Below, piece after piece: positions 1 to 48,141 of a stretch of 48,640 bases of DNA. Positions within the stretch are counted from its first letter, which is position 1; each line of letters opens with the position of its first letter. Source of the DNA: an uncultured Candidatus Peribacteria bacterium (GTDB lineage Bacteria > Patescibacteriota > Gracilibacteria > UBA1369 > UBA12463); contig CAZFSD010000002.1 of NCBI GenBank assembly GCA_964521465.1, positions 1 through 48,640 on the forward strand. Direction: 5' to 3'. A program made the position numbers and the translations under genes. The notes beneath the pieces were generated by a model. That model did not search any database and was not told where the DNA came from. It saw only the letters and a program-made list of their open reading frames with translations.

Positions 1-3000
1 CGAATTTGGCAAAGAAGATTCCAAAGAGAAGTAAGAGATCTCCAGAATTCTGCACCAAGGGAATCACCGTGCTCAATTAACTCTTCAGTGATATTTGGAT
101 GATTGAGATTGATATTTTTCTTTTCAAGAAGGTTTTTAAAATCTTCGGTTAAATTTAAATATGGCCTAATTTCCCACATGCCACTTTTATTTTTTTGTCC
201 ACGATAGCGAGCAATATCAGAGTATAGTTTCCATTTTTTTTCAAGAATCTCTTTAGCTTTCTTGTTTTTCCCTTTGTTATTTTTTCCTAATTTTTCAGTG
301 GTAGAAGTATATGTAAAAATAAATTTTTCATTTTCAAAAGCAATATGCATGTCAGCAAAATCTTTTTTGGCATTTTCAATGTTCTCGTATGAGATATATT
401 TATTCTTCCGCCAACCGCATTGGGGGCATGTCGTTGAGGTATAGGCCGCTGTAGTGTAGAAAAGCACTCCCGTCTGCTTATTTATATCTTGAAAGTTTTG
501 TACTGGTGGCGTGAGTTGAAGTGCTTTTAACGGGTGCCCAGTCTCATTTTCTTTCGCATCTTTTTGCACTAGGAAGTTTAGTTTTTTTGCGAGTGCAAGT
601 TCAAGTTTTTGATAAATAGGAAAATCCAGGGCACTTCTCCCCCGCTTGAAGCCTGAATTTAGATCTTCCAGGACTACAATAGCGTTGTATTTCAAAATAA
701 GATCACAGATTTTTCTTACAACTTGAGAGATATAGCCAGTTTTCAGTTCTTTAATATTTGCAATTCGCTTCCAATCTTTGCGAGCCCCATCCCGCTCTCC
801 TGCTCTTTTTTTAAGCTTTTCGTGGTAGTCAGTCTCCTTGTCCTTAATTTTAATCGTATTGAAGCTTCCCGTATCAAGGATCTTCCCCGCATTGTCAATT
901 ACGGAATAATATGCAAGATGCTTTTCCCCTCGATCAATACCAACAACACAAGGAAGATGACCATCCTTCACGATTTCTAAATTTAGCTTGTAGCTAATTC
1001 TTTTATCTTCTGGCGTGCTAAAATTTAAAACAATGGGACAGTGAAAGAAAATTTTATCTTCTGTATAGCGCTTGTTTTTTATAATTTTACGGTTAAAATT
1101 TCGCTCTTCTTCTTCAATTTTAATGGAACTGGGGCGAAAGAAAATTTCCGCTTCACCACTGAGTTTTATCAGAGGATCTACAAGATTTCTGGAATCAAAT
1201 AAGAACTTAAAATAAGAAGTATGCAGATTCTCCTTCCCAGTAGCCTTGAGACTGAAATCCTTGCTGTGAATCTCGAAAAGATAGACCCTCCCTTCATTTT
1301 TTAGGTTTTTTAACTTCTCACTAGAGATGGAGGTAAAACTTATGTTGTAGCCGTACTTGCTTACATCTCGATAAAATTGGCTTACATCTTCATATTCAGT
1401 GCTTGGCTTAAATTGAAAATTAAACACGCTCCAGTCTGGATATTTTTTGATGCAATCTTTAAAGTAATCGATCCATAGAGCTAAATCCTGTCGATTAAAT
1501 TTTTTATTATCTTTTTTGAATGTTTCTTCTTTGCGAATCCTTAGAATCTCTCTGGAGGGTGTAAAATATCCTTTTGGATTATCTGCCGAGAATAGATTAC
1601 TTTGTGCAAACCCAACCTTGGGTAGCATTTTGTTTGGCCCAGGCAAATATTTATACTCCATCTTCTCTAATTCACTGCCCTTTGCCTCAAAAAGCAGCTG
1701 ATTCTTTTCTCTATCAAAGATATGATTTTCTTTTTTATTCGCAGGAAGTGCTAAAAAGTACTTTCCTGAAGACTTTTCTCTTAAAACTACCCCATAGTTG
1801 TCTGATTGTTTATTTAAATCCCAGCCATTTAAAAGAGTAGAGTTTTCGAAATTCAGCTTCCATTTTTCCTCACTATAAGGTTTTTTTGTAAGGTAGTTTC
1901 TAAAGTTATCATACATTCTTACAAACTCCCGCGAGAAATCATCTTGGCTGCCGTAGTAAGCTTCAAATAGCATATAGAATTCTTCATTTCGTTCTTTTTC
2001 AATTGGTTTCCCACTTTTTTCTAATGCAAAATATTTCAACATTTGAAAAAGTGAAAGTGCTGTATCGCATACTGATTTAATAATCTCATTATTATTCTCA
2101 TTTCGACTATATTTCACACCCGAAGCTATTATTTTTTCAGCTTCTTTCTTTGCTGCTTCGAAATCTTTTTGTATCTTTCTAAATTCAGAATGAAAAATTG
2201 CTAAAAATGTTTGCCAATGGTTATTTTGAAATTGAGCTTTATACTCTTCCTTGAAGAGATTTTCAGATTTAAGATCATTACTACATAGAACTAACCGCAC
2301 TTCTGCCAATGTCACAAAATCTGGCAGTTTCTTTTTTTCACCTTTTCCTTGCATAAGCGCTCCTTTTAATGTTTCCCATGAAAGGAAATATTTACCAGAG
2401 AGAGTATTAATCGAAACGCCTTTTAAGTAGACCTCTTTTAGGAAATCTTCGTCTTCGGTGTGTCGAAAGAGAATTTCTAATACTTTTTCTGCTTCAGTAA
2501 TCTTCGAAGTGTTTAGTTCAATAAATTGCTGAAGTATTGGAAATACTTGCTCATCTTTTTCAAGATCATTCATCACTCGTTTTTCCTTTGGGCTAAGAAT
2601 TTGCTTGTATAACTTCTTAAATTGTCTAAGTTTTTTAAAACCATTATCGGATTTATTTTGCTGGTTATACTCATTAATTTTCTGATTTATACCTATTTCT
2701 CCATTATCTATCTGCTCGGAACCCCCAATGACTGCATTGTAAGAATCTATCCCCTGCTGCAAGAGACAAGAGTTATAAAAATCTATTTTAAAAATATTTT
2801 GCTTATATTCAGGCAAATCGAGCTTCTCATACTCTTCACGATTCTGTTCATATTGCCAGACATTGTCTGCGAAACGACGCAGATTTTCATTCACAATACG
2901 ATTGGCAATTGCAGTATCTTTAGCTTCAGTTACATAAAAATTCCGACGACTTGGGTGTAGACGATAAAAATATGTTGTAAATTTTTCTTTCAAAAACCAG

Positions 3001-3560
3001 TTAAATATATTTATAGGCCTACCCTCATAATCTTTTCCAAGTGTGCTGTATTTCTGGCCACCTATTTCATATACCTCATCAAAAAATATATGTGCAAGCA
3101 ATGAAAGAGTTTCTTTTCCAAACAGCACATCAATACCCTTACTTTCTTTTGCTGCTATAATGCCTTTTTTTATGTACTCGATTTTCCACTCATCTACTCC
3201 CGCAGTAAAAAAATCACCAATTGTCTTACGAAGTTTTTCTTCCTCTTTTTCAAACAGTGAAACTTTTTTATTTTCCTTGTACTCATTTTCTAATGCTGCA
3301 CCCCTTTTCTCTTTTCCAAATTCTTCATAATACTTATCCAAATCAAGATGAGTATTTCTTAAAGCGTCCTGAACAAATTTTCGATGCAACTCATCAAAAA
3401 ATGGCTTAATTTGCTCATAATTCTGTTGGATGATTTTATCTTTCTGGAAAACTCGTGCATCTTCTAACATTTTTTGAGTGTTGCCCACTGGCTTCAATTC
3501 AAACTTCAGTGTTTTTGAAAGTGAATAAAGGTTCGTAAACTTATCAAATATCTGACTCAT
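1..3560 (-). CDS. cas12a: Cas12a (Cpf1-like) type V-A CRISPR effector, 5' part only (1186 codons); RuvC-III and the C-terminus lie left of the window
   Basis: Hand translation of the minus strand from ATG at 3560 gives one uninterrupted frame to position 1. It is absent from the ORF track because no in-window stop exists. Motifs in canonical order: MSQIFDKFTNLYSLSKTLKFELKPVGNT; TAIANRIVNENL; LQQGIDSYNAVIGG; KLNFENSTLLNGWDLNK; YKYLPGPNKMLPKV; KDFSLKATGKENLHTSYFKFLF; RuvC-I VVGIDRGEKHLAYY (Asp codon 933-935); RuvC-II AIVVLEDLNSGFKRGR (Glu codon 666-668); LALAKKLNFLV. The frame ends at ...LWNLLCQI, just before the expected RuvC-III motif. Confidence 0.92.
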   Translation of the reverse strand, partial: MSQIFDKFTNLYSLSKTLKFELKPVGNTQKMLEDARVFQKDKIIQQNYEQIKPFFDELHRKFVQDALRNTHLDLDKYYEEFGKEKRGAALENEYKENKKVSLFEKEEEKLRKTIGDFFTAGVDEWKIEYIKKGIIAAKESKGIDVLFGKETLSLLAHIFFDEVYEIGGQKYSTLGKDYEGRPINIFNWFLKEKFTTYFYRLHPSRRNFYVTEAKDTAIANRIVNENLRRFADNVWQYEQNREEYEKLDLPEYKQNIFKIDFYNSCLLQQGIDSYNAVIGGSEQIDNGEIGINQKINEYNQQNKSDNGFKKLRQFKKLYKQILSPKEKRVMNDLEKDEQVFPILQQFIELNTSKITEAEKVLEILFRHTEDEDFLKEVYLKGVSINTLSGKYFLSWETLKGALMQGKGEKKKLPDFVTLAEVRLVLCSNDLKSENLFKEEYKAQFQNNHWQTFLAIFHSEFRKIQKDFEAAKKEAEKIIASGVKYSRNENNNEIIKSVCDTALSLFQMLKYFALEKSGKPIEKERNEEFYMLFEAYYGSQDDFSREFVRMYDNFRNYLTKKPYSEEKWKLNFENSTLLNGWDLNKQSDNYGVVLREKSSGKYFLALPANKKENHIFDREKNQLLFEAKGSELEKMEYKYLPGPNKMLPKVGFAQSNLFSADNPKGYFTPSREILRIRKEETFKKDNKKFNRQDLALWIDYFKDCIKKYPDWSVFNFQFKPSTEYEDVSQFYRDVSKYGYNISFTSISSEKLKNLKNEGRVYLFEIHSKDFSLKATGKENLHTSYFKFLFDSRNLVDPLIKLSGEAEIFFRPSSIKIEEEERNFNRKIIKNKRYTEDKIFFHCPIVLNFSTPEDKRISYKLNLEIVKDGHLPCVVGIDRGEKHLAYYSVIDNAGKILDTGSFNTIKIKDKETDYHEKLKKRAGERDGARKDWKRIANIKELKTGYISQVVRKICDLILKYNAIVVLEDLNSGFKRGRSALDFPIYQKLELALAKKLNFLVQKDAKENETGHPLKALQLTPPVQNFQDINKQTGVLFYTTAAYTSTTCPQCGWRKNKYISYENIENAKKDFADMHIAFENEKFIFTYTSTTEKLGKNNKGKNKKAKEILEKKWKLYSDIARYRGQKNKSGMWEIRPYLNLTEDFKNLLEKKNINLNHPNITEELIEHGDSLGAEFWRSLTSLWNLLCQI

Positions 3561-3665
3561 AGATAATTTTTTAAAATTAACATCTTATAATAACCATTAA
3601 ATTTCAAAATATACAAGAAAGTCTTAATAGAGTAAAAAGCGCGTCTCATGACACTGTTTATCCTT

Positions 3666-3741
3666 TGGTGGGCCCGCCTGGGATTGAACCAGGGACCAAT
3701 CGGTTATGAGCCGACTGCTCTAACCACTGAGCTACGGGCCC
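3666..3741 (-). tRNA. tRNA with anticodon CAT (elongator Met or lysidine-type Ile2), CCA encoded
   Basis: 76-nt cloverleaf on the minus strand: acceptor GGGCCCG/CGGGCCC, D arm GCTC-AGTGGTTA-GAGC, anticodon arm GTCGG-CTCATAA-CCGAT, T arm CCTGG-TTCAATC-CCAGG, 3' ACCA. The G1-C72 pair and the lack of a GGG/CCC anticodon stem argue against an initiator. Confidence 0.9.
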
Positions 3742-9159: not shown

Positions 9160-9300
9160 AGTGTGGTGAGATCAAAAAGTGAAGAATGGAAATTTATTGG
9201 CATCATAGCAAGTTTTATTTCGTGCGGCAAAATTGTCTTTCTTGTTGGTTTCATTTATTATTGTGCTGCTTGTTTGCGCACCCTCCTCACTCACTTTTTC

Positions 9301-11661
9301 ATGTTCCCACTCACCTCACTGAAACTTTTTTTCCGGTATGTAAATTATATCGGCGCGGCTCAACTGTATCTGAAGGATAATTTTCTGCTCCAGGAGCCGC
9401 TTCGTGCTGAACATGTCAAAGACCGAATTTTGGGACACTGGGGGACGGTTCCGGGACTGAGTTTTATGTATACCCATGCGAATTATCTCATCACGAAGCA
9501 TGATGCGAATATGCTTTTTATTGCTGGGCCGGGACATGGAGCGCCGGGGGTTTTGGCGTGTCTTTTTGCCGAAGGAACCATGGGCGAATTTTATAAAGAA
9601 TGTTCCCGCGACGGCAAAGGCATGGGCCATCTCATCAAATCTTTTAGCTGGCCGGGTGGATTTCCGAGCCATCTGAATCCGGGAACTCCGGGAAGTATTT
9701 TGGAAGGTGGAGAACTCGGATATAGCCTTTCCACTGCATTTGGCGCGGTTATGGATAATCCGGATTTGATCGCCGTGTGTGCTGTTGGCGATGGCGAGGC
9801 GGAAACTGGCCCACTTGCGGCAGCATGGCAGAGTAACAAGTTTCTGAGTCCCGCAACCTGCGGCGCAGTACTTCCGATTTTGCATGTGAACGGGTATAAA
9901 ATTTCCGGACCAACGATTTACGGAACGATGAGCGATGGGGAAATTCAGAGCGTCTTTCAAGGTTTTGGCTATCAGGTGAGAATCGTAGAGGGTGAACATC
10001 TTCATCGATCCATGGCTTCCGCGATGGAATGGGCGTATCAGGAAATTCGTGCGATTCAGAAAAAAGCCCGCGCGCTGCAGAAAAAGGGCGACACCCTTCT
10101 CTGTCCGCGATGGCCGATGATTGTTTTGCGTTCTACAAAAGGCTGGACCGGCATTCATGAGCTCAATGGCCGGAAAATCGAAGGCAACTTCCCTTCTCAT
10201 GGTATTCCGCTTGCTGATCCCAAGACGAATCCGAAGAGTTTGAAAATTTTGGAACAGTGGCTGCGCAGTTATAAGATTCACGAACTGGTCGATCGTGAAG
10301 GACGACCACTTCCGAAGGTGCTCAAATATGTACCGAAAGGCGATCTGCGCATGGGGAAGAACAAACATACCTATGGTGGTCAGATGCTGAAAGAACTCAA
10401 AATGCCGAAATTGGAACAATATCAGGTGAAAGTTCGGGACCGCGGCGGCGTCAATGCCTCGAATACGCATGTCGGTGCACTGCTCGTGCGCGATATTTTT
10501 AAACTGAATCGCAGCGCGGCAAATTTCCGTTACTTCTGTCCGGATGAAACGGAGTCCAATAAGATGCAGGCGATTTTCGAAGAGACGAAGAGGGCTTTTC
10601 AGTGGCCTTTGAAATCGTATGACGAACAGATGGATCCGTATGGTCGCGTCATAGAAATGCTCAGCGAGCACACGCTTCAGGGATTTCTGCAGGGCTATGT
10701 TTTGACCGGCCGACATGGTCTTTTCGGAACTTATGAAGCTTTTGCGCCGATTATCAGCAGCATGGTGGATCAGTATGCGAAGTTTCTCAAACAATCCCAG
10801 AAAGTCCCCTTCCGCAAGCCGCTTGCTTCGCTTAATTACATCCTCACGAGTCTGGGCTGGAGGCAAGAGCACAATGGATACTCTCACCAGAATCCGGGCT
10901 TTATCACGACGATTTTGGAGAAGCACGGATCATTCTGCAGCGTCTATCTTCCGTGTGATGCGAATAGTCTCGTTGCGGCGCTCGACGACTCCTTCCGCCG
11001 AAAGAACAGTATCAATGTCATCGCCGCGGGCAAACAGAATATGCCACAATGGATGACCATGAAAGAAGCCCGGGAACAGATTAAAACCGGAATTGCTGTC
11101 TGGGATTGGGCTCATCCGGGAAGTAGTGATCCCGATGTCGTACTGGCCGCTGCGGGCGATCACATGACACTCGAAATGATGGCGGCCGTGAGCCTGCTGA
11201 AAGAACACGCTCCGGAACTTCGACTGCGCGTGGTGAATGTTTCTGAACTCACGGCGCTGGGTATGGGCGACGAACGACGACCGTGTTTACTTTTGAATGA
11301 CGCGACGACGGACAAGTACTTCACACTCGACCGCGATGTGGTTTTCAATTTCCACGGCTATCCAAGCGTCATCCAGCAACTGACCTGGGGTCATCCGGCG
11401 TCACTGCGGTTTTCAATTCACGGCTACCTCGAAGAAGGAACGACCACAACGCCTTTTGACATGCATGTCCGTAATCGCACGAGCCGCTACCATCTGGCGA
11501 TTGACGCCATTTCGCGCGGCGCGAAATTTAATCCCGCTCTTCGCAAAAGAGTTGGGAAGTTGTGCGAATTTTTTGAGAGCATCCTCACGAAGCATCAACA
11601 ATTTATCGTCGAAAATGGACGAGATATGGATGAGGTGGAGAATTGGAAGTGGCGGAACTAA
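9301..11661 (+). CDS. xfp: xylulose-5-phosphate/fructose-6-phosphate phosphoketolase
   Basis: YIGAAQLYLKDNFLL, ILGHWGTVPG, IAGPGHGAPG, and ILEGGELGYSLSTAFGAVMDNPDLIAVCAVGDGEAETG. The start is moved to ATG 9301; the 46 codons upstream in the track look like spurious read-in. Confidence 0.9.
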   Translation: MFPLTSLKLFFRYVNYIGAAQLYLKDNFLLQEPLRAEHVKDRILGHWGTVPGLSFMYTHANYLITKHDANMLFIAGPGHGAPGVLACLFAEGTMGEFYKECSRDGKGMGHLIKSFSWPGGFPSHLNPGTPGSILEGGELGYSLSTAFGAVMDNPDLIAVCAVGDGEAETGPLAAAWQSNKFLSPATCGAVLPILHVNGYKISGPTIYGTMSDGEIQSVFQGFGYQVRIVEGEHLHRSMASAMEWAYQEIRAIQKKARALQKKGDTLLCPRWPMIVLRSTKGWTGIHELNGRKIEGNFPSHGIPLADPKTNPKSLKILEQWLRSYKIHELVDREGRPLPKVLKYVPKGDLRMGKNKHTYGGQMLKELKMPKLEQYQVKVRDRGGVNASNTHVGALLVRDIFKLNRSAANFRYFCPDETESNKMQAIFEETKRAFQWPLKSYDEQMDPYGRVIEMLSEHTLQGFLQGYVLTGRHGLFGTYEAFAPIISSMVDQYAKFLKQSQKVPFRKPLASLNYILTSLGWRQEHNGYSHQNPGFITTILEKHGSFCSVYLPCDANSLVAALDDSFRRKNSINVIAAGKQNMPQWMTMKEAREQIKTGIAVWDWAHPGSSDPDVVLAAAGDHMTLEMMAAVSLLKEHAPELRLRVVNVSELTALGMGDERRPCLLLNDATTDKYFTLDRDVVFNFHGYPSVIQQLTWGHPASLRFSIHGYLEEGTTTTPFDMHVRNRTSRYHLAIDAISRGAKFNPALRKRVGKLCEFFESILTKHQQFIVENGRDMDEVENWKWRN

Positions 11662-17008: not shown

Positions 17009-17698
17009 TTATTTTTTCCAACCCTTTGCTGCGAGCGCGTTTTCGGCGGCGGATTCTTCGGCTTTTTGTTTGCTCGAGCCGAGGCCTTCGGCGATTTTTT
17101 CTTCTTTGATGTAGGCGGCGACGCGGAATTTTTTTTCGTGGTCGGGACCCATTTCTTCCAGAACTTCGTAATGAGGCGTGACACCGGTTTGCTCCTGGGC
17201 CATTTCCTGAAATGAAGATTTTGCGTCGATATGAAGACCTTTTTCAATAATCTGTTCGAGCTCTTTGATGATGTACTGATGAATGAAATTGTGCGCGGCC
17301 TGATAGCCTTGTTCGAGATAGATGGCACCGATGAGTGCCTCTACCGCGTTGGCGAGAATGTAGGGCTTTTCGCGACCTTTGCCTTTTTCTTCGCCTTTGC
17401 TGAGGAAAAGATATTTTCCGATGTCGAGCTCCTGCGCGACATTCGCAAGATTGTTGCCTTTCACGAGAGCAGAACGCCAGTTCGTCATTTCACCTTCATT
17501 GCTCTGGGGATATTTTTTGTAGAGATATTCCGTGACGATTAATTCCAAAACGGCGTCACCGAGAAATTCGAGTCGTTCATTATGGCCGCCTTTTTCGTTT
17601 TTATGTTCGTTCACATATGAACGATGAACAAAAGCGGTTTTGAGAAGCTTTTGATCCTTGAATGTGATACCGATTTTTTGTTCGAGAGAGCCGTACAT
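17009..17698 (-). CDS. rnc: ribonuclease III
   Basis: Signature NERLEFLGDAVLEL, the second catalytic block ANAVEALIGAIYL, and a C-terminal dsRBD (KSSFQEMAQE...GSSKQKAEESAAENAL). The start is at ATG 17698, not the 92-codon extension in the track. Confidence 0.9.
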   Translation of the reverse strand: MYGSLEQKIGITFKDQKLLKTAFVHRSYVNEHKNEKGGHNERLEFLGDAVLELIVTEYLYKKYPQSNEGEMTNWRSALVKGNNLANVAQELDIGKYLFLSKGEEKGKGREKPYILANAVEALIGAIYLEQGYQAAHNFIHQYIIKELEQIIEKGLHIDAKSSFQEMAQEQTGVTPHYEVLEEMGPDHEKKFRVAAYIKEEKIAEGLGSSKQKAEESAAENALAAKGWKK

Positions 17699-17729
17699 TG
17701 CAAGAGAGTGATTTAGTGGGTGGGAGTTT

Positions 17730-18182
17730 TTATTCTCCAACTGGCTTTCCTGTTTTGTGATCGCGATGGGTGCAATATTTTTTGAGCACTGCCGAAAGGA
17801 CGCCATTGACGAATTTCGGAGCGTTGAGATCACCGAAGGCTTTTGCCATTTCGATCGCTTCATTGATGGCAACAATCGGTGGAACATCGTCGGAATAGAC
17901 GATTTCATACACGCCCACTTCCATAATAGCACGATCCGTGGGAGCAATCTTCTCGAGAGGCCATTCGATGGCAAATTCTTTGATTTTTGTCGTGATGTCG
18001 GCGCGGTTTTTCAAAATACCGGCGAGTGTTTTTTTGGCGTACTCCTGCTCCTGTATCGCGCCTTCATCTTTTTCCAGAAGGCTTTCTTGGAGTATTTTGT
18101 CGACATCTCCGCCATTAAATTCATAGGCAAAAATCGCCTGCATGACAGCGACGCGTGCTTGATGGCGGGAGCGGGAGGACAT
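17730..18182 (-). CDS. nusB: transcription antitermination factor NusB
   Basis: 150 aa. SRHQARVAVMQAIFAYEF..., DRAIMEVGVYEI, and INEAIEMAKAFG. Confidence 0.9.
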   Translation of the reverse strand: MSSRSRHQARVAVMQAIFAYEFNGGDVDKILQESLLEKDEGAIQEQEYAKKTLAGILKNRADITTKIKEFAIEWPLEKIAPTDRAIMEVGVYEIVYSDDVPPIVAINEAIEMAKAFGDLNAPKFVNGVLSAVLKKYCTHRDHKTGKPVGE

Positions 18183-29247: not shown

Positions 29248-29892
29248 ATGAAACTCTTTCTGGATACTGCCAATATCGATGAAATCAAAACCATTGCCTC
29301 GTGGGGCGTTTTGGATGGGGTCACGACGAATCCGACATTGGTGGTCAAAGAGGGAGTGAGTTTTGAAAAACGCGTGAAAGATATTTGCAAAATCGTTTCG
29401 GGACCGGTGAGTGCGGAGGTCATCTCGACGGATGTGAAGGGAATGCTCGCAGAAGGTCGAGCGTATGCGAAATGGGCGAAAAACATTGCGGTAAAAGTTC
29501 CACTCACTCCTGCCGGTCTTCAGGCGGTTTCACAGTTTTCCAAAGAAGGGATCATGACCAATGTGACCCTGTGCTTCTCTGCAAATCAAGCACTGCTGGC
29601 GGCAAAAGCCGGCGCGAGCATGGTGAGTCCTTTCGTGGGACGACTTGATGACTTGGGCCAGGATGGACTCGAAGTCATTCGAGAGATCATGGATATTTAT
29701 GTTGAATTTGGTTTTCCCACCGAAGTTCTTTTTGCCAGCGTGCGCCATCCTCGCCATGTTACGGAGGCGGCGAAAATGGGAGTCGACATCGCCACTTTGC
29801 CCTACAATGTTTTTGAAAAACTCGTGAAGCATCCGCTCACGGATTCGGGTCTCGAAAAATTTCTTTCAGACTGGAAGAAAGCCAAAAAATAA
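29248..29892 (+). CDS. tal: transaldolase / fructose-6-phosphate aldolase family (short type)
   Basis: [14 protein letters not shown]...[12 protein letters not shown], Schiff-base lysine context IAVKVPLT, and SPFVGRLDD. Confidence 0.9.
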
Positions 29893-29916
29893 TCGTTTCT
29901 TTTCTTTATTTTCCTC

Positions 29917-31206
29917 ATGCTTTCTCTGCATTCACATCATGTTTTCTCGGTTGGATCGCGTGGACTTACCAAAAAAATGGTTGAAGATGTTCTTTCGCCG
30001 GATTTTACTGCTTCTCTCGAGCATCGGATGAAGGATTGGAGTTTTTTGAAATTGGCGCAAGAGTGCGAAGAAAATGGCTTGATCGATCGGATTGAGGCTT
30101 TTTTTCGTGAGGTTGATGGAAAATTTGAATATCTCGCCATTCTTGGGATTGGCGGCTCTGCTCTGGGGACCCGATGCATCGTGGACGCCCTGTGTACGCC
30201 GGCTGCGCGGGCGAAGGTTTTTGTGCTCGACAATGTGGATCCGGCAATGCTCGATGATTTTGAAAAATCGGTCAATCTGGAAAAAACGCTTTTTGTCGTT
30301 GTGAGTAAATCCGGGGGGACGCCGGAGACGGTGGCGCAGTACTTTTATTTTCGATCGCAGGTGGAAGAAACGGTCGGCAAGGAGTGGAAAAAACAATTTG
30401 TCGTTGTCACGGATCCGGAGAAAGGATTTTTGCGAGAAGTTGTGAAGAACGAGGGACTCAAGAGTTTCGATGTTCCACCGGAAATTGGTGGACGCTTTTC
30501 GGTGCTTTCGGCGGTAGGGCTTCTTCCCGCGGGGCTTCTCGGTGTCGATATTCGCGAGATGCTTCGTGGGGCAAGACAGGCGCTGGAATCTCAGAAAATG
30601 GCACTCGAACTTGCGGCGGTGCAGTATCTTTTGCAGCGTGAAAGGGGCGTGGTGATGACGGTGATGATGCCGTACAGCTCCCGACTTTCGACTTTTTCCG
30701 ATTGGTATGTGCAACTGCTTTCTGAGAGCATTGGCAAAGAAAAAAATCTCGACGGCGAGACGGTGCACACAGGCATTACACCCGTGAAAGCCGTGGGCGT
30801 GACCGATCAACATTCGCAGGTGCAGCTTTTTACGAGTGGGCCTTTCGATAAATTTGTCGTTTTTTTGGAAGTTGAGGAGGCGGGCATTGATATGACTATT
30901 CCGATCGTGACCTCTGAAAATACTTCTTCTGGCCGGGACAGCGCGAAAGACTTTTCGTATCTGCATGGCGTTTCTTTTCAAAGACTTCTCAATACGGAAA
31001 AACAAGCGACCGAGCAGGCTTTGACTCAGTACCATCGAGCGAATGCGACGGTAAAAATTCATGAAGTTGACGCTGCTGCGCTTGGCGAACTGTTTGTATT
31101 TTTCGAGATGAGCGTGGCTTTTCTCGGTGAACTTTATCGCATCAATACTTTCGATCAGCCGGGTGTAGAACTTGGCAAGACGCTCACGAAAAAACTTCTC
31201 TCTTGA
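29917..31206 (+). CDS. pgi: glucose-6-phosphate isomerase (short type)
   Basis: ILGIGGSALG, VVSKSGGTPET, GGRFSVLSAVGL, and DQHSQVQLF. The start is uncertain (29917 or the internal ATG 29977). Confidence 0.85.
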   Translation: MLSLHSHHVFSVGSRGLTKKMVEDVLSPDFTASLEHRMKDWSFLKLAQECEENGLIDRIEAFFREVDGKFEYLAILGIGGSALGTRCIVDALCTPAARAKVFVLDNVDPAMLDDFEKSVNLEKTLFVVVSKSGGTPETVAQYFYFRSQVEETVGKEWKKQFVVVTDPEKGFLREVVKNEGLKSFDVPPEIGGRFSVLSAVGLLPAGLLGVDIREMLRGARQALESQKMALELAAVQYLLQRERGVVMTVMMPYSSRLSTFSDWYVQLLSESIGKEKNLDGETVHTGITPVKAVGVTDQHSQVQLFTSGPFDKFVVFLEVEEAGIDMTIPIVTSENTSSGRDSAKDFSYLHGVSFQRLLNTEKQATEQALTQYHRANATVKIHEVDAAALGELFVFFEMSVAFLGELYRINTFDQPGVELGKTLTKKLLS

Positions 31207-31244
31207 AAGTTCTAATCTCTTCTCAATCCCTCATCCCTCACTCT

Positions 31245-31775
31245 ATGTTTTCCATTTTTTCTTCTTTTCGGCATCGAACTTTCTGGCTTTTGTTCTGTGT
31301 GGCAATTTGTGAACTTGCGGGAATTGCGGGTTCGTTTTTTACGGCGCCGGCGGTTTCAAGTAGCTGGTATGCAAATCTGCAAAAACCGGTTTTTATGCCA
31401 CCGAGTTGGGTTTTTGGACCGGTGTGGGTGACGCTGTACTTCCTCATGGGCGTCAGTCTCTATTTCATCTGGAAACAGGCATTTTCGCGACACTTTTTAC
31501 CTTTTTTGCATGAAAAATCCCAGCATCAAGCACGGTTTTCGATTGTGTTTTTCTTCGTGCATCTTGCGTTGAATGCGGCGTGGTCGATCGTCTTCTTTGG
31601 CCTTCAGAATATCGCTCTGGCGCTGGCGGTGATTGGTATTTTGTGGCTCATGATCCTGGTTTTGATCGCCCTGTTCTCATCTCTCGACAAACGGTCCAGC
31701 TGGCTTCTGGTACCATACTTTCTCTGGGTTTCTTTTGCGGCGGTTTTGAATGCGGCGATTTTTGTGTTGAATTAA
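31245..31775 (+). CDS. tspO: TspO/MBR-family tryptophan-rich sensory protein
   Basis: WYANLQKPVFMPPSWVFGPVWVTLYFLMGVSLYFIW and five hydrophobic helices. ATG 31245 is preferred over the TTG at 31203 that overlaps the pgi stop. Confidence 0.85.
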   Translation: MFSIFSSFRHRTFWLLFCVAICELAGIAGSFFTAPAVSSSWYANLQKPVFMPPSWVFGPVWVTLYFLMGVSLYFIWKQAFSRHFLPFLHEKSQHQARFSIVFFFVHLALNAAWSIVFFGLQNIALALAVIGILWLMILVLIALFSSLDKRSSWLLVPYFLWVSFAAVLNAAIFVLN

Positions 31776-31837
31776 GGTCATTCACGAACTATTTCACACC
31801 TTTGATTTCTTTATTCCTGGTGCTATAATCCCGCTCG

Positions 31838-33793
31838 ATGGAACTCCCGAAACTTGGTTTGCCGCTAACTTCAGAGCAGCTTCAACTTTTACGGGCTTTT
31901 AGTCGTTCGTGTCGCCGTTCGGCTCTGCAGATGGTCACGAATGCGAAATCGGGGCATCCGGGCGGGAGTCTTTCGGCGCTGGATTATCTTTCGCTGTTGT
32001 ATCTTTTCCTGGTCAGCCAGACAAACGAGCCGGTCGTCATTTCGAATGGGCATATCTCCCCTGCGGTGTACGCGGTTTTGGGAGAATTGGGCGTTTTTGA
32101 AAAAGAACGAGCAATCAAAAATTTCCGAAAACCGAACGATATTTTCGAAGGGCATGTGAATCGCCGAGTTCCGGGTATTTATTACAGCACCGGGCCGCTG
32201 GGCGTTGGAGCAAGTGTGGCGAGTGGTTTTGCGTGGGGCGACAAATATCGTGGAAGCCATGAATTCACCTATCTCGTGATGGGTGATGGTGAAAATCAAG
32301 AGGGCATGGTCTACGAAATGATGAATTTTGCGGCGAAATACCATTTGAATAATTTGATCGGTTTTATTGATTACAACCAGATTCAATTAACGGCGAGTCT
32401 CGATGAAATCATGCCGCTGAATATCAAAGGTTATTATGAGGCTGCGGGATGGGAAGTTTTTGAGGTCAATGGTCATGATTTTTCTGCGATGTGGGATGTG
32501 CTGGGTCGCGCTCATGAATCTCGTACGAAACCGGTTTTGATTTTGGGCCATACGGTCATGGGCAAAGGCGTGTCATTCATGGAGCAAGTGGCTCACGAAG
32601 GCAAGGCCGATTGGCATGGCGTGGCGCCAAGCGCTGAACAGAACGCTGCAGCAAGTCTTGAACTTGCATCGAGCGATGAGGATGAAGCCTTGATACGAGC
32701 GTTTGTTCAGCAATTTCCTCATAAAATCAAAACGCCGGACATGCCGAATTTGTGGACGAAAATCGAAGGCATTGATGTAGGCGAACCGGTCACCTATCCT
32801 GCCGACAAGCTGACGGATTGTCGCGGTGCGTATGGCAGCGCGCTTGCTGATCTGGCAAAACGCAATAAAAATATCCTCGCGATGACGGCAGATCTGGCCG
32901 GCTCGGTGAAGACTGATGGCGTGAAGAAAAATTCTCCAGCGCAGCATATTGAATGCGGCATTGCAGAACAACACATGGTGAGTGCGGCGGGCGGATTGAG
33001 CTTGCGAGGTTTCGTGCCTTTCTGTTCAACTTTTGGCGCGTTCATGAGTAGCCGTGCGAAAGACCAGGCGCGTGTGAATGATATCAACGAAGCGAATGTG
33101 AAAATGGTGGCAACCCACTGTGGACTTTCTGTGGGCGAAGATGGGCCGACGCATCAGGCGATCGACGATATGAGCTCATTTTTGGGCTTTATGCATACCA
33201 ATATTCTCGAGCCGGTTGATCCGAATCAGTGCGATCGGATGATTCGATATGTGGCGAGTGTCTCCGGAAATTTCTATGTGCGTATGGGTCGCGCCAAATT
33301 GCCGGTGATTACCAAAGAAGATGGAACGCCGTTTTTTGCAGGCTCTTATGTTTTCGAGCCGGGTCGTGCGGACATCGTGCGTGAAGGTACAGATGTGACG
33401 ATTGTGGCGAGTGGGCCGATGGTTGAACGCGCGATGAAAGTGGCAAATACCCTTTCTGCGGTGAACGCAAATCCTGCGAGCGCTTCGAAATCCGTAGAAG
33501 TCATTGCCGTCTCGTCTCTGCGACCTTTTGATGAAGAGACCATTTTGAAAAGCGCACGAAAAACCGGACGCGTGGTAACCGTGGAAGATCATCACAGCGC
33601 AACAGGACTGGGATCACTGGTGCTCCAGACTTTGGCACGGGCACGATGCGTCGATCAGACGGGCATGCCGGTACTTGTCAAAACTCTCGGCGTTCATGAA
33701 TACCAACTCTCGGGCACCTGTGATGAACTCTATGAAAAAGCAGGCCTGGGACTTCAGCACATCGAAGAAACGGTGAAGGGAATGATGGCTTAA
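31838..33793 (+). CDS. tkt: transketolase
   Basis: SGHPGGSLS, the TPP motif VMGDGENQEGMVYEMMNFAAKYHLNNLIGFIDYNQIQL, EQHMVSAAGGL, and GEDGPTHQAIDD. Confidence 0.9.
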   Translation: MELPKLGLPLTSEQLQLLRAFSRSCRRSALQMVTNAKSGHPGGSLSALDYLSLLYLFLVSQTNEPVVISNGHISPAVYAVLGELGVFEKERAIKNFRKPNDIFEGHVNRRVPGIYYSTGPLGVGASVASGFAWGDKYRGSHEFTYLVMGDGENQEGMVYEMMNFAAKYHLNNLIGFIDYNQIQLTASLDEIMPLNIKGYYEAAGWEVFEVNGHDFSAMWDVLGRAHESRTKPVLILGHTVMGKGVSFMEQVAHEGKADWHGVAPSAEQNAAASLELASSDEDEALIRAFVQQFPHKIKTPDMPNLWTKIEGIDVGEPVTYPADKLTDCRGAYGSALADLAKRNKNILAMTADLAGSVKTDGVKKNSPAQHIECGIAEQHMVSAAGGLSLRGFVPFCSTFGAFMSSRAKDQARVNDINEANVKMVATHCGLSVGEDGPTHQAIDDMSSFLGFMHTNILEPVDPNQCDRMIRYVASVSGNFYVRMGRAKLPVITKEDGTPFFAGSYVFEPGRADIVREGTDVTIVASGPMVERAMKVANTLSAVNANPASASKSVEVIAVSSLRPFDEETILKSARKTGRVVTVEDHHSATGLGSLVLQTLARARCVDQTGMPVLVKTLGVHEYQLSGTCDELYEKAGLGLQHIEETVKGMMA

Positions 33794-34395
33794 GCTTCTT
33801 TTTCCAATTCCCTACTTAATCCCTCACGAATTACTAAAGTTATTGTTCCCACATTTCTATCGGCCGGCGGAGTCTCTTCTCCTGGATAGTCGCCAAAGCC
33901 TATCTCTGTGAATCCTGTAATCTCGTTCAATATTCTACAGAATTTTTCAAAGCTTATTCCCCCAACACCTTTCAACTCGTTTATCACGGCTTCCACAAAA
34001 TCATCTTTCATACCATCGTCTTCGGGAATATTTTTTGCATATTTTCCTCTGATTTTAAGTTCATTTTTTATAGCTCCTGCTACTTTTTTTTGTGTCATTA
34101 ACATCTTTTTCTGATTTTGTGCAATCCTCACCAGAGCTGCTTCCATCGCTTTTCCGATCTTCTGTATATCAGCTCTTTTCCCTGGGCTCCTCGTTACTTC
34201 TATCTGCATCTTCAGTTGCTCGAAAAGCTTCATGAGTGTTATGGGTGACGAATAACGCTCATGATTCTCCATTGAAGAATTCTTTAAAGAATCCTTCAAG
34301 GATATACTTCCTCTGCTACCCAAGCCTACTGCCGGACCGCTGATTTCTTCTAAAGTTGAACCTGTCTCAATATCATTCGCCATTGTTTTTTTCAT
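33790..34395 (-). CDS. hypothetical protein
   Basis: AT-rich 201-aa ORF with no signal peptide and no family I recognise. Its stop codon overlaps the tkt stop (convergent, 4-nt overlap). Confidence 0.45.
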   Translation of the reverse strand: MKKTMANDIETGSTLEEISGPAVGLGSRGSISLKDSLKNSSMENHERYSSPITLMKLFEQLKMQIEVTRSPGKRADIQKIGKAMEAALVRIAQNQKKMLMTQKKVAGAIKNELKIRGKYAKNIPEDDGMKDDFVEAVINELKGVGGISFEKFCRILNEITGFTEIGFGDYPGEETPPADRNVGTITLVIREGLSRELEKEA

Positions 34396-34450
34396 TACTC
34401 AATCTTTGACTCTTATTTTAATTCTTTTTTTCTTTTTGTCAAATTCAGCT

Positions 34451-35092
34451 TCAGATGAATTCCCAATTGAGCTCTTTCATTATTTTTGCGAGTGGAATTT
34501 CGTGAAAATCGGCGTCTGACTTTTGGGCGAGAGTGAGGATTTTTTCTTTTTCTGGAGTTTTCGCTTTGAGGATGAAGACTTTTTCGGTGTCGAGGAGGGC
34601 TTGATAGGTCAGTGTGAGGCGGTTTTTGACTGGAAATGCTGAGCCGGCGGGCACTTGCGCTCCTGTCACGAGTGACTTCGCCTCGAGTACATCAGTATTT
34701 GGGAAAAGTGAAGCGATGTGTCCGTCTGGACCATATCCGAGGATGAGAATGTCGATGAGGGGATGGCGCGCGCGCTGGAGATTCATGAGCTTACTCTGCA
34801 TATCTTTTGCGGCTTGCTCAGGAGAAAGAAAGGTATTGAAGACGATAACGCCCTCTGGCTTGATGCGGATCTGAGAAAAAAGCGCTTCACTTAACATGCG
34901 AAAATTACTTTGTTCGTCGGTTGGCGGGACACAGCGTTCGTCAATCAGGATCCATTCGATGCGTTCCCAGGGAAGTTTTTGCTGTGCGAGTTGCTGATAG
35001 ATTGCGCGGGGAGAAGTACCTCCGGAAAGGCCGATGCGGCAAGTGGAATTTTGACGGAGGGAGGTGTTGATGCTGTCGAGGAGATTTTGCAT
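34451..35092 (-). CDS. pgl: 6-phosphogluconolactonase
   Basis: RIGLSGGTSPRAIYQQL, LIDERCVP, and LGYGPDGHIASLFP. Confidence 0.85.
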   Translation of the reverse strand: MQNLLDSINTSLRQNSTCRIGLSGGTSPRAIYQQLAQQKLPWERIEWILIDERCVPPTDEQSNFRMLSEALFSQIRIKPEGVIVFNTFLSPEQAAKDMQSKLMNLQRARHPLIDILILGYGPDGHIASLFPNTDVLEAKSLVTGAQVPAGSAFPVKNRLTLTYQALLDTEKVFILKAKTPEKEKILTLAQKSDADFHEIPLAKIMKELNWEFI

Positions 35093-35097
35093 GAGAT

Positions 35098-36516
35098 TTA
35101 AAAGTTATTCCATTTGTCGCCGAATTGCGCGATCCAATCGTCGACTCCTTTTGGGCCGAGAGTTCCCTCTTCATAGATGTGAAGTGGAGTTTTATCATCT
35201 TTAAACTCTTCGAGTACGGGCTCGAGCACTTTCCAGGAAGACAGCACTTCTTCGAAGCAGAGGAAAAGCAATCGGCTGCCGCGAATGGTTTCCAGAATGA
35301 GTCTGCCGTGCGGATCAATACAATCGCCGGCACAGTAAATCGTTTTGCTGGTGGCGAGATTGTGAAAGTCCGTCTCGTTGCCGCCCATTTTGGTCAGCAA
35401 GTGGAACTCAATTTTCTCTTCTGGCTGGAGTTGAATCACCAGGAGATTCGGCTCAATTTTGTCATTTTTTCGATGGAGTGGAAGTGGCTTGAATTCGATC
35501 ACAATACTCGTGAGTTGCTTGGCGAGCTTTTTGCCGCTGCGCAGATAGATGGGAATATCGTGCCAATCGAGATGGTCGAGCGTCAGGCGCATCGCCATAA
35601 ATGTTTCAGTTTTGGAATCTTTTGGAATTTCTGATTCGCTTGTGTAGCTCTTGTACTGGCCGCGAACGACGGTTTTCTGAACATCTTTGATTTTGATGTA
35701 TTTGATGAGATTTTCTTTTTCACGGTGGATGGTGTCGGTGTTGATTTCTTCCGGCAAATTCATCGTAAGAAATGCGAGAATCTGAAAAAGATGCGACTGA
35801 ATCATGTCGCGGAGATTGCCGACTTTGTCGTAGCTGGGACGACCTTCGATGCCGAGTGTTTCCAGGCCGTTGATTTGAATGTTTTTGATGTATTTTCCCT
35901 GAATCAAGCGGGCGAGCATGGCGTTGGCATAGCGCAGAGACAAAACATTAAATACTGCCTCTTTCCCGAGATAATGATCGAGAAGGAAAATCTGCTCGTC
36001 TTCAAAATTATTGCGAAGAATTTTCTTAAGGGCTTTTGCGGAAGAGTAGTCCGTGCCGACGGGCTTTTCGATCACGAGACGCCCTTCGAATTTCAGCTCT
36101 CCGAGATTTTCAAGTATTGGCTGGAAAACCTGTGGCGGAACGGAAAGATAGGCGATGTCGACATGATCTTTGTGTTTTTTGAGATGGCCGAGCTGTGCGA
36201 GGAGATTTTCGTAATCTTCTTTTTTACTATAATCACCTTGGATGTATTGAACAGCGTTGAGTACTTCGCGGAGAACCTCACGATCTACTTCTTTGCCGTA
36301 CTTCTTGACGACAGCATCTTCGAATATCTTTTGAAATTGTTGTTTGGTGAAATGGGTGCGGCCATATCCGACGATATGGAAATTCACCGGAAGACGGCGT
36401 TCCACCATGAGCTGATAGAGAGACGGGAAAATTTTGAGTTTTGCCAAATCGCCCGATGCTCCGAAAATCACCATCGTGAAATCTTTTTCTGCTTTTTGAA
36501 ATTGGAAATTTTCCAT
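35098..36516 (-). CDS. zwf: glucose-6-phosphate 1-dehydrogenase
   Basis: MVIFGASGDLAKLKIFPSLY, the active-site block LLDHYLGKE, and RGQY. The start is at ATG 36516 (MENFQFQ). Confidence 0.9.
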   Translation of the reverse strand: MENFQFQKAEKDFTMVIFGASGDLAKLKIFPSLYQLMVERRLPVNFHIVGYGRTHFTKQQFQKIFEDAVVKKYGKEVDREVLREVLNAVQYIQGDYSKKEDYENLLAQLGHLKKHKDHVDIAYLSVPPQVFQPILENLGELKFEGRLVIEKPVGTDYSSAKALKKILRNNFEDEQIFLLDHYLGKEAVFNVLSLRYANAMLARLIQGKYIKNIQINGLETLGIEGRPSYDKVGNLRDMIQSHLFQILAFLTMNLPEEINTDTIHREKENLIKYIKIKDVQKTVVRGQYKSYTSESEIPKDSKTETFMAMRLTLDHLDWHDIPIYLRSGKKLAKQLTSIVIEFKPLPLHRKNDKIEPNLLVIQLQPEEKIEFHLLTKMGGNETDFHNLATSKTIYCAGDCIDPHGRLILETIRGSRLLFLCFEEVLSSWKVLEPVLEEFKDDKTPLHIYEEGTLGPKGVDDWIAQFGDKWNNF

Positions 36517-36524
36517 GGTTTTTA

Positions 36525-37949
36525 TTATACGATTCCTTCGTCCCAATTACCATGAAAATTCCCCTCTTTGTCTTTTCGCTGAAATCCGTGGGCGCCAAAA
36601 TAATCGCGGAGTGCTTGGATCATGTTGGTGTTGAGTGGATTCGTCGTCATGGATTGGTAGTACTGCAGCCCAGAGCTGAAGGCTGGAACGGGGCGATCAT
36701 GCTCGATGGCTCGCGTGACCACCGATTTGAGACTTTCGAGTGTGCCTTTTTCCGTCTCTTCGCCTTTGAAATCCTCGAGGAGATATTCTTTTCGGGAGGC
36801 GAAGGATTTTTCTATTTTCTCGAGCATGCGGGCGCGGATGATGCAGCCGCCTTGCCAAATGCGGGCGATTTCTGCGAGATTCAGAGATTCTGCAAATGGT
36901 GCGCTTCTGAGGAGGGCAAATCCTTGAGCGTAGGCGATAGAGGTCGCTTGCAAAAGAGCCTTTTCAAGACTTTCTCGAAATTCTGTGGCGGAAGTTTTTT
37001 TGTCGTTGGTTTTTTTCTCGAGTGCGAGACGGGTTCGAAGTTTTTTCTGTGCGGAAATCGCGCGTGCAAACACCGCTTCTGCGATGGTATTGACTGGAAT
37101 CCCCTGTTCTAGCGCCTCCAGCGTCGTCCAAATGCCGGTTCCTTTTTGACCGGCGATATCGAGAATCATGTCGATCATATATACATTTCCTTCTTTTTTT
37201 CGCATGACGGCACCCGCAATTTCGATGAGGAAAGACTGTAGTGGACCTTTGTTCCACTGCTCAAATACTTCTGCTATTTCGTCATTTTCATATCCCGCGA
37301 CATTTTTCATAAGATCATACGCCTCACTGATAAGCTGCATAACGGCGTATTCGATGCCGTTATGAACCATTTTCACATAGTGGCCGCTGCCCCCCTCGCC
37401 CATGTACGCGACACAGGGTTTTCCTGAAAAGTCACGCGCAGCACAGGCTTCAAATATCTCCCGGCACTTTTCCCATGCTTCCGGTGACCCCCCGGGCATC
37501 ATACTTGGACCCATGAGAGCGCCCTTTTCTCCGCCGGAAATACCCATGCCGATGAAATGTATACCTTGGTGCTTGAGCTTCTCTTGTCGCGTTTGCGTGT
37601 CTTTGTACCAGGAATTGCCGCCGTCGATCAGGATGTCGCCTTCTTCAAGGAGTGGCGTGATGTGGTCGATCATTTCGTCGATAGGTTTACCTGCGGGCAC
37701 CATCAGGACGATGCGGCGTGGCTTTTGCAGGTTATTCACGAAATCGTCCAGGTGCTCAAAACCAAAGAGATTCATCTCTAAATCCCTTGCCTTCCCTTCG
37801 GATTCGGTTGCGTATTTTTCAAGAAATTCTTTTGTTTTTTCGTAAGTCCGGTTGTAGACCGTGACCGAAAAGCCTTTGGAAGCCATGTTTCGTGCGAGAG
37901 CACTTCCCATGGTTCCAAGGCCGATAAGTCCGATACTAGTACCCTTCAT
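36525..37949 (-). CDS. gnd: 6-phosphogluconate dehydrogenase (decarboxylating)
   Basis: IGLIGLGTMGSALARNMASKGFSVTVYNRT, GMGISGGEKGA, GSGHYVKMVHNGIEY, and C-terminal RDYFGAHGF. The start is placed at MKGTS (37949), not the 44-codon extension in the track. Confidence 0.9.
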   Translation of the reverse strand: MKGTSIGLIGLGTMGSALARNMASKGFSVTVYNRTYEKTKEFLEKYATESEGKARDLEMNLFGFEHLDDFVNNLQKPRRIVLMVPAGKPIDEMIDHITPLLEEGDILIDGGNSWYKDTQTRQEKLKHQGIHFIGMGISGGEKGALMGPSMMPGGSPEAWEKCREIFEACAARDFSGKPCVAYMGEGGSGHYVKMVHNGIEYAVMQLISEAYDLMKNVAGYENDEIAEVFEQWNKGPLQSFLIEIAGAVMRKKEGNVYMIDMILDIAGQKGTGIWTTLEALEQGIPVNTIAEAVFARAISAQKKLRTRLALEKKTNDKKTSATEFRESLEKALLQATSIAYAQGFALLRSAPFAESLNLAEIARIWQGGCIIRARMLEKIEKSFASRKEYLLEDFKGEETEKGTLESLKSVVTRAIEHDRPVPAFSSGLQYYQSMTTNPLNTNMIQALRDYFGAHGFQRKDKEGNFHGNWDEGIV

Positions 37950-38112
37950 CTTCGTCATCTTCCTCATCATATCCCATCTCGTCGTCTTCGTCATCGCATT
38001 TGCATTGACTCGTGACTTCTTCGCAGTCTGCGCACATTTCCTCGCGGATGTCATCGCAGCAACTTCCCTGGTCATCTGCAACGCTTCCGCACCAAGCGCA
38101 TTTATATTTCAT
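37936..38112 (-). CDS. 58-aa Cys-rich, strongly acidic mini-protein (below the track's 60-aa cutoff)
   Basis: Hand translation: MKYKCAWCGSVADDQGSCCDDIREEMCADCEEVTSQCKCDDEDDEMGYDEEDDEDEGY. It lies between kamA-like and gnd on the same strand, and its 3' end overlaps the gnd start by 14 nt in another frame. Confidence 0.4.
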   Translation of the reverse strand: MKYKCAWCGSVADDQGSCCDDIREEMCADCEEVTSQCKCDDEDDEMGYDEEDDEDEGY

Positions 38113-48114: not shown

Positions 48115-48141
48115 CGTGATTTTTGAAATATTCAAAAGATA

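Follow-up and report, generated by a model that had tools for sequence, protein, structure and literature searches.

An edge-truncated cas12a gene with a short WED loop beside a tRNA-Met gene in an uncultured Patescibacteria bacterium

The stretch of DNA analyzed here (the window, 48,640 nucleotides) comprises positions 1 to 48,640 of contig CAZFSD010000002.1 from an uncultured Candidatus Peribacteria bacterium. At its left edge it carries, on the minus strand, the greater part of a gene whose product is a Cas12a effector of type V-A CRISPR-Cas. We propose, with a probability of about 0.9, that window 1-3560 holds the first ~92% of an intact cas12a gene under purifying selection. According to this reading, the gene belongs to a short-WED-loop branch of the family consisting mostly of members of the candidate phyla radiation (CPR), and it sits in low-GC accessory DNA directly 3' of a tRNA-Met gene on the chromosome of a Peregrinibacteria-like member of the Patescibacteria. 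The gene is one more ortholog, incomplete and with about 71% identity to its nearest recorded sequence, of a heavily studied family. The lineage itself is already present in public databases as Cas12a or Cpf1 (e.g. OIO19978.1, PIW96672.1 and MCK9379261.1) and also in the hidden Markov model sets used for classification.

From an ATG at position 3560, the minus strand can be read down to position 3 as 1186 codons without a stop; the frame then runs off the left edge with two bases over. The remaining five frames of window 1-3560 contain between 50 and 138 stops each. At the nucleotide frequencies of this region, with p(stop) = 0.0807 per codon, chance alone would place ~96 stops in 1186 codons, and the probability of a stop-free run of this length is 4.7e-44. 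The gene is missing from the list of open reading frames (ORFs) because its frame runs off the window edge, and the ORF tool does not list such frames. An earlier sequence-only reading of this DNA had described the frame, had explained its omission by the lack of an in-window stop, and had quoted nine motifs from the product. Retranslation agrees with the frame, the behavior of the tool bears out the explanation, and each of the nine motifs was found exactly once and in the order given. The full length, as estimated from relatives, is ~1288 residues, of which the window holds ~92%. Purifying selection is evident in the comparison with the two closest loci, L001 and L002 (described below): pN is 0.16-0.17 while synonymous sites are saturated, for a dN/dS of about 0.1, and dN/dS between these two relatives is 0.13.

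The assignment to Cas12a rests on profiles, fold and individual residues. The product reaches 786.8 bits with the NCBIfam equivalog TIGR04330 (Cas12a/Cpf1; cutoff 300, E=3.9e-236), and two Cas12a sub-models of PADLOC match end to end with 1059 and 1039 bits. Cas12e is the sole other CRISPR model matched; its 81.6 bits are below the cutoff of 200 and concern the RuvC region only, and the Cas12e model of PADLOC yields 47 bits. Hence, in the searches that had been proposed against Cas12a, other Cas12 subtypes and TnpB, Cas12a alone is found above cutoff, and the fold matches agree. Pfam detects REC1, PI and RuvC_1 (the Cas12a RuvC) in the correct order. Sequence matches in the PDB are Cas12a chains only (ReChb, Fn, Mb, Lb2, Lb, As and Am), plus one dead Cas12e at E=1.4e-4. 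An AlphaFold2 model based on a 53-sequence alignment has a mean pLDDT of 83 and a pTM of 0.70; among its best 50 matches from the PDB, Foldseek returns nothing but Cas12a, at TM scores of 0.54-0.74. The architecture is WED, REC1, REC2, PI, RuvC-I, bridge helix, RuvC-II and the start of Nuc, in that order. The features of the gene and its product are as follows.

1-3560, minus strand: cas12a coding sequence, codons 1-1186 of an expected ~1288; the left edge cuts the gene.
3477-3539, minus strand: N-terminal WED-I block FTNLYSLSKTLKFELKPVGNT (residues 8-28), which aligns with residues 3-30 of FnCas12a and ReChb; F20 is invariant in alignment A1.
2598-3413, minus strand: REC1 domain (residues 50-321), Pfam PF18501, 146.6 bits.
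Residues 216-227, minus strand: motif TAIANRIVNENL, single occurrence.
Residues 267-280, minus strand: motif LQQGIDSYNAVIGG, single occurrence.
Residues 568-581, minus strand: motif KLNFENSTLLNGWD, single occurrence.
1809-1811, minus strand: codon of Lys584 (WDLNK), equivalent of the PAM-reading K613 of FnCas12a in the phmmer alignment (PAM, protospacer-adjacent motif).
Residues 636-649, minus strand: motif YKYLPGPNKMLPKV, single occurrence.
1347-1643, minus strand: PAM-interacting (PI) domain (residues 640-738), including Lys648; Pfam PF22222, 98.7 bits.
1032-1157, minus strand: shortened WED-III loop GEAEIFFRPSSIKIEEEERNFNRKIIKNKRYTEDKIFFHCPI (residues 802-843), delimited by phmmer, a MAFFT alignment of 121 sequences and a motif survey; AlphaFold2 pLDDT 69-74.
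924-941, minus strand: RuvC-I GIDRGE (residues 874-879) with the catalytic Asp876 (codon 933-935), an invariant column of alignment A1 that corresponds to Fn D917.
708-785, minus strand: bridge helix ARKDWKRIANIKELKTGYISQVVRKI (residues 926-951) with the invariant Trp930, from the FnCas12a alignment; the helix of the model spans residues 930-958.
657-674, minus strand: RuvC-II VLEDLN (residues 963-968) with the catalytic Glu965 (codon 666-668), an invariant column that corresponds to Fn E1006.
417-428, minus strand: CPQC (residues 1045-1048) in Nuc, the first half of a TnpB-like zinc ribbon whose other Cys pair is past the edge.
Residues 1182-1186, minus strand: motif LLCQI, the last residues before the left edge.

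The best reference points are FnCas12a (Francisella novicida Cpf1; PDB 5NG6, 5NFV, 6I1K) and the reconstructed ancestor ReChb (8QWD), which have the same domain order, TM scores of 0.70-0.72 and about 31-36% identity to the window protein. Common to all of them are the RuvC-I Asp, the RuvC-II Glu, the bridge-helix Trp, the PAM lysines K613/K671, the NLHT segment of WED-III, and K869/K871/R872. D876, E965, W930 and R831 are invariant columns. Both PAM-reading lysines of Fn are kept, as K584 and K648; the second corresponds to K671, since MLPKV aligns with Fn 668-672. The Cas12a scaffold is therewith intact in RuvC-I, RuvC-II, the PI domain, the PAM lysines and the NLHT segment. Three differences stand out against FnCas12a: the WED-III loop is short by 17 residues and has neither His843 nor Lys852, the zinc-ribbon CxxC replaces the Fn ICPVTG, and the window protein has lineage-specific conserved residues such as Y510, R1051 and K880.

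The closest proteins on record share 68-72% identity across the whole 1186 residues. Two of them come with informative loci, i.e. L001 (Logan contig SRR22388205_251769, protein P0001) and L002 (metagenome-assembled genome (MAG) contig CAYHVY010000005.1 of a Candidatus Peribacteria bacterium, P0003/P0263, 68% identity). The sequence-only reading had suggested a resemblance to Peregrinibacteria-type Cas12a; L002 is indeed the nearest relative in the genome collections, and DnaX, encoded elsewhere in the window, points to Patescibacteria and Peregrinibacteria as well. Apart from a protein of JGI metagenome 3300045379 with 99% identity, the matches of DnaX show 46-59% identity, and those with a named source come mostly from Patescibacteria or Peregrinibacteria. 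The Cas12a proteins of L001 and L002 continue with LLCQIRN ... C[PS]AC ... NGDANGAYNIAR, which provides the Arg of Nuc, another Cys pair and the Asp of RuvC-III; LLCQIRN and NGDANGAYNI are present in five close relatives (P0001-P0004, P0006). Q1185 aligns with FnCas12a Q1216, and the window therefore ends one residue before the Nuc Arg1218, which confirms the earlier placement of the frame's end at the ...QMRN block.

In both loci, cas12a is followed by an AbiEii-like gene, cas4, cas1, cas2, a conserved leader and the array. The array of L002 consists of 11 identical copies of the 36-nt repeat GTCTAAAGCCAATATTAGATTTCTACTTTTGTAGAT with spacers of 25-29 nt, and the contig of L001 ends within the same repeat. 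Judged by these two closest relatives, the Nuc Arg, the RuvC-III Asp and the second Cys pair are probably located in the missing ~100 residues; cas4-cas1-cas2 (perhaps the AbiEii-like gene, too) and an array of ~36-nt repeats ending in ATTTCTACTTTTGTAGAT would then follow cas12a. That array, adaptation genes and RuvC-III lie outside the window had been stated correctly before. Two genes of these loci may be recorded in passing. The AbiEii-like nucleotidyltransferase gene occupies the cas12a-cas4 interval (L001:10144-10809, L002:12655-13317). A DUF87/TraC-like ATPase of 642-772 aa, encoded upstream of cas12a (L001:3696-6014, L002:6335-8263), matches the PADLOC model mad8.

More challenging is the interpretation of the shortened WED-III loop. 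FnCas12a cuts its precursor CRISPR RNA (pre-crRNA) in the WED domain by means of H843 (acid), K852 (transition state) and K869 (base) (PMC11127173), and the corresponding H759 of LbCas12a was termed 'a conserved histidine' by Knott et al. (PMC6711708). In the window protein, the stretch from GEAEIFFR to FFHCPI measures 42 residues versus 59 in Fn, reads PSSIKIEEEERNFNRKIIKNKRY and contains zero histidines; the segment bounded by F808 and H840 is free of His. The net deletion of 17 residues covers the positions of Fn H843 and K852. Retained are K828 (Fn K869), K830 (K871), R831 (R872) and Y832 (F873), and of the RNase triad the equivalent of K869 alone is kept. The segment ENLHTSYFKFLF (residues 777-788), which the sequence-only reading had taken for the pre-crRNA RNase context, corresponds to Fn 801-812 (PNLHTLYWKALF): it is the conserved NLHT segment of WED-III and includes neither His843 nor Lys852. 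The predicted structure of the replacement loop is a short helix-turn with a pLDDT of about 70.

The insertion point is the same hypervariable site of WED-III, above the processing nuclease, at which AsCas12a and LbCas12a differ (Knott et al. 2019, PMC6711708). The As-type loop is a two-helix bundle with about 91-96 residues between the anchors, and the Lb/Fn-type loop is a hairpin with about 53-64. The loop of the window lineage is a third, shorter state of 41-47 residues that lacks the histidine known as LbCas12a H759 or Fn H843. L001 and L002 share with the window protein the His-less loop K[IVA]EEE.R.F.R..[IV]KNKRY together with the CP.C Cys pair.

This third state is not confined to a few genes. 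In a MAFFT alignment of 121 family members, with a short loop defined as 47 residues or fewer, a His occupies the H843 column in 57 members. The short loop is found in 44 of the 121, and the H843-column His in none of these 44. In 21 of the short-loop members the loop is entirely free of His; in the remaining 23 a His is present elsewhere in it, most often directly before KRY. A His beside KRY occurs in about half of the short-loop branch, and the subclade of the window protein lacks it. Database entries named Cas12a are among the short-loop members. Because 44 of the 121 members likewise have no His in the H843 column, the triad is not universal, and its failure in the window protein does not exclude membership in Cas12a. 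A neighbor-joining tree from 933 conserved columns, with the loop excluded, divides the family into two deep branches: one includes the His-bearing sequences like Fn, Lb and As, the other nearly all short-loop sequences. The third loop state thus characterizes one of the two deep branches, and all named members of that branch that we looked up belong to CPR.

The His-less state is not decay. Independent His-less genes adjoin canonical arrays, with 11 (L002), 11 (L011), 10 (L013) and 34 (L017) repeats, and proteins as distant as about 36-55% identity to the window protein show the RxFxR of the replacement loop again. We found no relocated catalytic His or Lys elsewhere in WED that is conserved only in the short-loop branch. 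The solved Cas12a structures all belong to the His-bearing one of the two deep branches in our tree. The best PDB matches are all in the His-bearing branch and none in the short-loop branch; 8KGF (AmCas12a) was considered as a solved short-loop structure and rejected, for it is not close to protein P0110.

With His843 and Lys852 deleted, guide maturation cannot proceed through the canonical His843/Lys852/Lys869 acid-base site. The likeliest substitute, to which we give somewhat better than even odds, would be a slower, His-independent cleavage by Lys828, Lys830 and Arg831 together with the lineage-conserved Arg820 and Arg824 of RxFxR. A precedent for His-independent cleavage is provided by the processing sites of Cas13, for which a Lys has been proposed as general base (PMC11127173). 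Clearly less probable, though a serious possibility, is that the short-loop lineage matures its crRNAs without the canonical WED RNase, with another active site (e.g. RuvC) or a host RNase instead. RuvC-dependent guide maturation has been reported for some other type V effectors. The host RNase III of the window (17009-17974, minus strand; Pfam Ribonucleas_3_3 and dsrm) is a possible, putative host factor if the lineage does not process its own guides.

The second part of our reading concerns the genomic context of the gene, in which two features adjoin the start codon.

3561-3665, minus strand: AT-rich spacer of 105 bp from the tRNA to cas12a, in which a single weak terminator-like hairpin occurs at 3654-3641 and a single promoter-like site at 3636-3608.
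3666-3741, minus strand: tRNA-Met(CAT), its 3' CCA end toward cas12a, found by ARAGORN and Rfam (72 bits); the composition boundary and strain-variable junction.

The number of promoter and terminator hits in the spacer is not above chance. The GC content of cas12a is 0.342 (34% versus about 48%), and at third codon positions (GC3) it is 0.307, versus 0.38-0.63 in sixteen host genes. The change is abrupt: GC falls from ~0.5 to ~0.3 at position 3660, i.e. at the 3' end of tRNA-Met. DNA similarity between the window and L001/L002 begins only at about the ATG of cas12a. Upstream of this gene, both loci possess the DUF87/TraC-like ATPase and gyrA but, unlike the window, no tRNA; their cas12a genes, with a GC content of 0.38-0.39 versus 0.34 in the window, are nearer to their own upstream flanks (0.42). 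Strains 97-99% identical to that of the window are represented in JGI 3300045379 and 3300045396 and in SRA DRR685535 and SRR8893623. Contig L023 (JGI 3300045396), from a closely related strain, matches the window with 97% identity in ThyA-DHFR and 100% in both tRNA exons, and it departs from the window immediately after the CCA of the tRNA (3666/3665) into unrelated sequence. Because of this divergence directly after the CCA, the cas12a segment is strain-specific accessory DNA at a tRNA gene. It has the appearance expected of an integrative island: a break in composition and a loss of homology between strains both occur at the tRNA 3' end. No integrase gene was found between tRNA-Met and the left edge of the window, and the far end of the island is off-window.

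Several side observations concern this junction. The tRNA(CAT) is called 'Met' by ARAGORN; its anticodon stem has no three initiator G-C pairs, and it could equally be tRNA-Ile2 (lysidine). In L023, a 322-bp group I intron (L023:2047-2368; Rfam RF00028, 59.8 bits versus a gathering score of 50, E=4.6e-14) splits the anticodon loop of the same tRNA between U33 and the CAT anticodon. The 5' exon ends with U and the intron with G; ARAGORN misses the split gene, and the allele of the window is intron-free. The end of contig L020 (Logan contig DRR685535, 96.9% identical) inside the tRNA, at window 3712, was considered as island variability and rejected; it is 3-4 nt from the intron insertion site and most likely reflects heterogeneity of intron presence and absence in the sample. 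Between DHFR and the tRNA, related strains possess a low-GC insertion of ~690 bp that is absent from the window (L023:1265-1954, L024:7909-8085; window 3814/3800). Its two small ORFs (79 and 122 aa) have a toxin-antitoxin-like layout and no significant Pfam match. A further strain-variable spot near the cas12a junction is an insertion of 1.35 kb in L024 (L024:3521-4872; JGI 3300045379, 97-99% identical), which lies between an Fe-S assembly gene and DUF2203 (window 6850/6847) and contains two hypothetical genes (192 and 207 aa) without Pfam match.

A number of points weigh against our reading. The tRNA junction, which is 3.7 kb inside the left edge of the window, could have been created by the assembly. 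In a Magasanikiibacteriota MAG (L006, 9617-12601), a tRNA-Ser(GGA) is followed after ~290 bp by a low-GC cas12a (29-33% versus ~52%) that is a mere remnant of 868 codons ending right after RuvC-I; DNA of host GC is present on both sides of this contig, and no att-like direct repeat was found in the surroundings of the remnant. Thus, a tRNA-adjacent cas12a of CPR can be a truncated one. The window does not reach the final ~100 codons of the gene, where the Nuc Arg, the second Cys pair and the RuvC-III Asp are expected, and it includes neither adaptation genes nor an array of this system. The 3' end of the gene was not recovered: protein-guided scans of genome, viral and metagenome collections returned relatives only, and exact-protein look-ups of neighboring genes only short contigs from other samples. 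The window contains no match to TCTACT-N3-6-GTAGAT and no Cas12a-type repeat. The PAM can be predicted only from the conserved lysines, and no protospacer was found; three spacers of L002 have no exact match in viral contigs, and the 94 unique spacers collected from relatives match neither the window nor the loci in any meaningful way. Finally, two of the three canonical RNase residues are absent, so that self-processing, a hallmark of the Cas12a enzymes studied so far, would be no more than a putative trait of this lineage.

Among the alternatives, the one that fares best, while still improbable, accepts the Cas12a as real and regards its link to the host as an assembly chimera: a low-GC fragment from a Peribacteria-like genome would have been joined through a shared tRNA-Met, and the island context would be an artefact. 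The abrupt GC change at the tRNA so near the left edge, the GC3 of cas12a (0.31) outside the host range, and the passage of L023 into different DNA directly past the same tRNA would all fit such a join, and no contig of other samples links tRNA-Met to cas12a. However, the two closest cas12a loci have no upstream tRNA, which means that the donor would need a different layout plus an identical tRNA. L006, with its low-GC cas12a right after a tRNA and DNA of host GC on both sides, reveals that tRNA-adjacent insertion does occur in CPR, and a homology break exactly at the tRNA 3' end is equally the product of an integrative island.

Even less support is left for a decaying or orphan cas12a, truncated or frameshifted past the edge, or deprived of array and adaptation genes, so that immunity is lost. 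L006 has exactly such a tRNA-adjacent remnant, and in the window nothing downstream is visible, nor is a Cas12a repeat. Against this stand 1186 uninterrupted codons where ~96 chance stops are expected, the integrity of every testable catalytic and PAM residue, the strongly purifying selection, and the complete loci in both nearest relatives. We consider decay quite unlikely.

The Cys pair in the Nuc domain requires a separate comment. Relatives P0001-P0006 possess C[PS]AC after LLCQIRN, and Fn/Lb-type proteins lack Cys at both positions. Within the short-loop lineage, having all four Cys is the mark of a sub-branch, some members of which match the TnpB-type PF07282; the label 'Zn2' of the window protein in the tree annotation is an artefact of truncation. 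The four-Cys zinc ribbon known from TnpB and further type V effectors (PF07282) has its CxxC...CxxC on either side of the Nuc arginine region, as in the relatives of this branch. Unlike in TnpB, the ribbon is here part of a full-size Cas12a with REC and PI domains, and the first Cys pair alone is inside the window.

This pair, which characterized Cas12a proteins do not have, and the missing canonical RNase loop could suggest that the protein is not a DNA-cutting Cas12a at all. Cas12a2 has Cas12a-like WED and RuvC but is not known to possess a PI domain or a bridge helix. An RNA-triggered abortive-infection nuclease like Cas12a2, a nuclease-dead guide protein like Cas12k or another Cas12/TnpB member is rejected as highly improbable, because the PI domain (PF22222, 98.7 bits) and the bridge helix are both present, RuvC-I retains its Asp and RuvC-II its Glu, and the PDB sequence matches at E<=0.001 include no chain under the name Cas12a2; in addition, the Cas12e model scores under its cutoff, and the relatives have canonical V-A repeats and adaptation genes.

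Based on the conserved residues and on the loci of relatives, the window Cas12a probably performs crRNA-guided, T-rich-PAM-dependent cleavage of double-stranded DNA (dsDNA). Target recognition would be guided by one crRNA that has a 5' pseudoknot handle and requires no tracrRNA. Recognition of a T-rich 5' PAM would lead to R-loop formation, and the single RuvC site would make a staggered cut in the dsDNA. Adaptation would be carried out by Cas4, Cas1 and Cas2 encoded downstream. The guides would be matured by His-independent Lys/Arg cleavage, or otherwise by another nuclease site or a host RNase.

Beyond this locus, the window is an ordinary piece of chromosome, with thymidylate synthase and DHFR, a phosphoketolase (window 9163-11661), a pentose-phosphate cluster, RNase III, PdxS/T, alanine racemase, PolX and DnaX. 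The pentose-phosphate cluster (29248-38081) comprises transaldolase, PGI, transketolase, 6-phosphogluconolactonase, G6PD and 6PGD, interspersed with a TspO/MBR gene and one hypothetical ORF. At the right edge, an edge-truncated ORF (48120-48640, minus strand) contains imperfect 12-residue repeats of the FGPQTGS type near its N-terminus, for which Tandem Repeats Finder reports a period of 36 bp. This tandem repeat (48561-48640) was examined as a CRISPR candidate and rejected, as it is inside a continuous minus-strand reading frame.

In the strain comparison, a tRNA gene of a small-genome CPR bacterium emerges as the site of accessory DNA that carries a CRISPR effector gene. The CPR-rich branch of the family, moreover, keeps in part an ancestral-looking zinc ribbon. 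If guide maturation differs in this branch, a textbook attribute of the Cas12a family would change. Should the His-independent self-processing be true, the repeat RNA would be cut 5' of AUUUCUACU; should the other maturation route be true, self-processing by His/Lys/Lys would be confined to one of the two deep branches of Cas12a. Such a difference would be relevant to applications with multiplexed guides and to anti-CRISPRs such as AcrVA4, which dock at that site.

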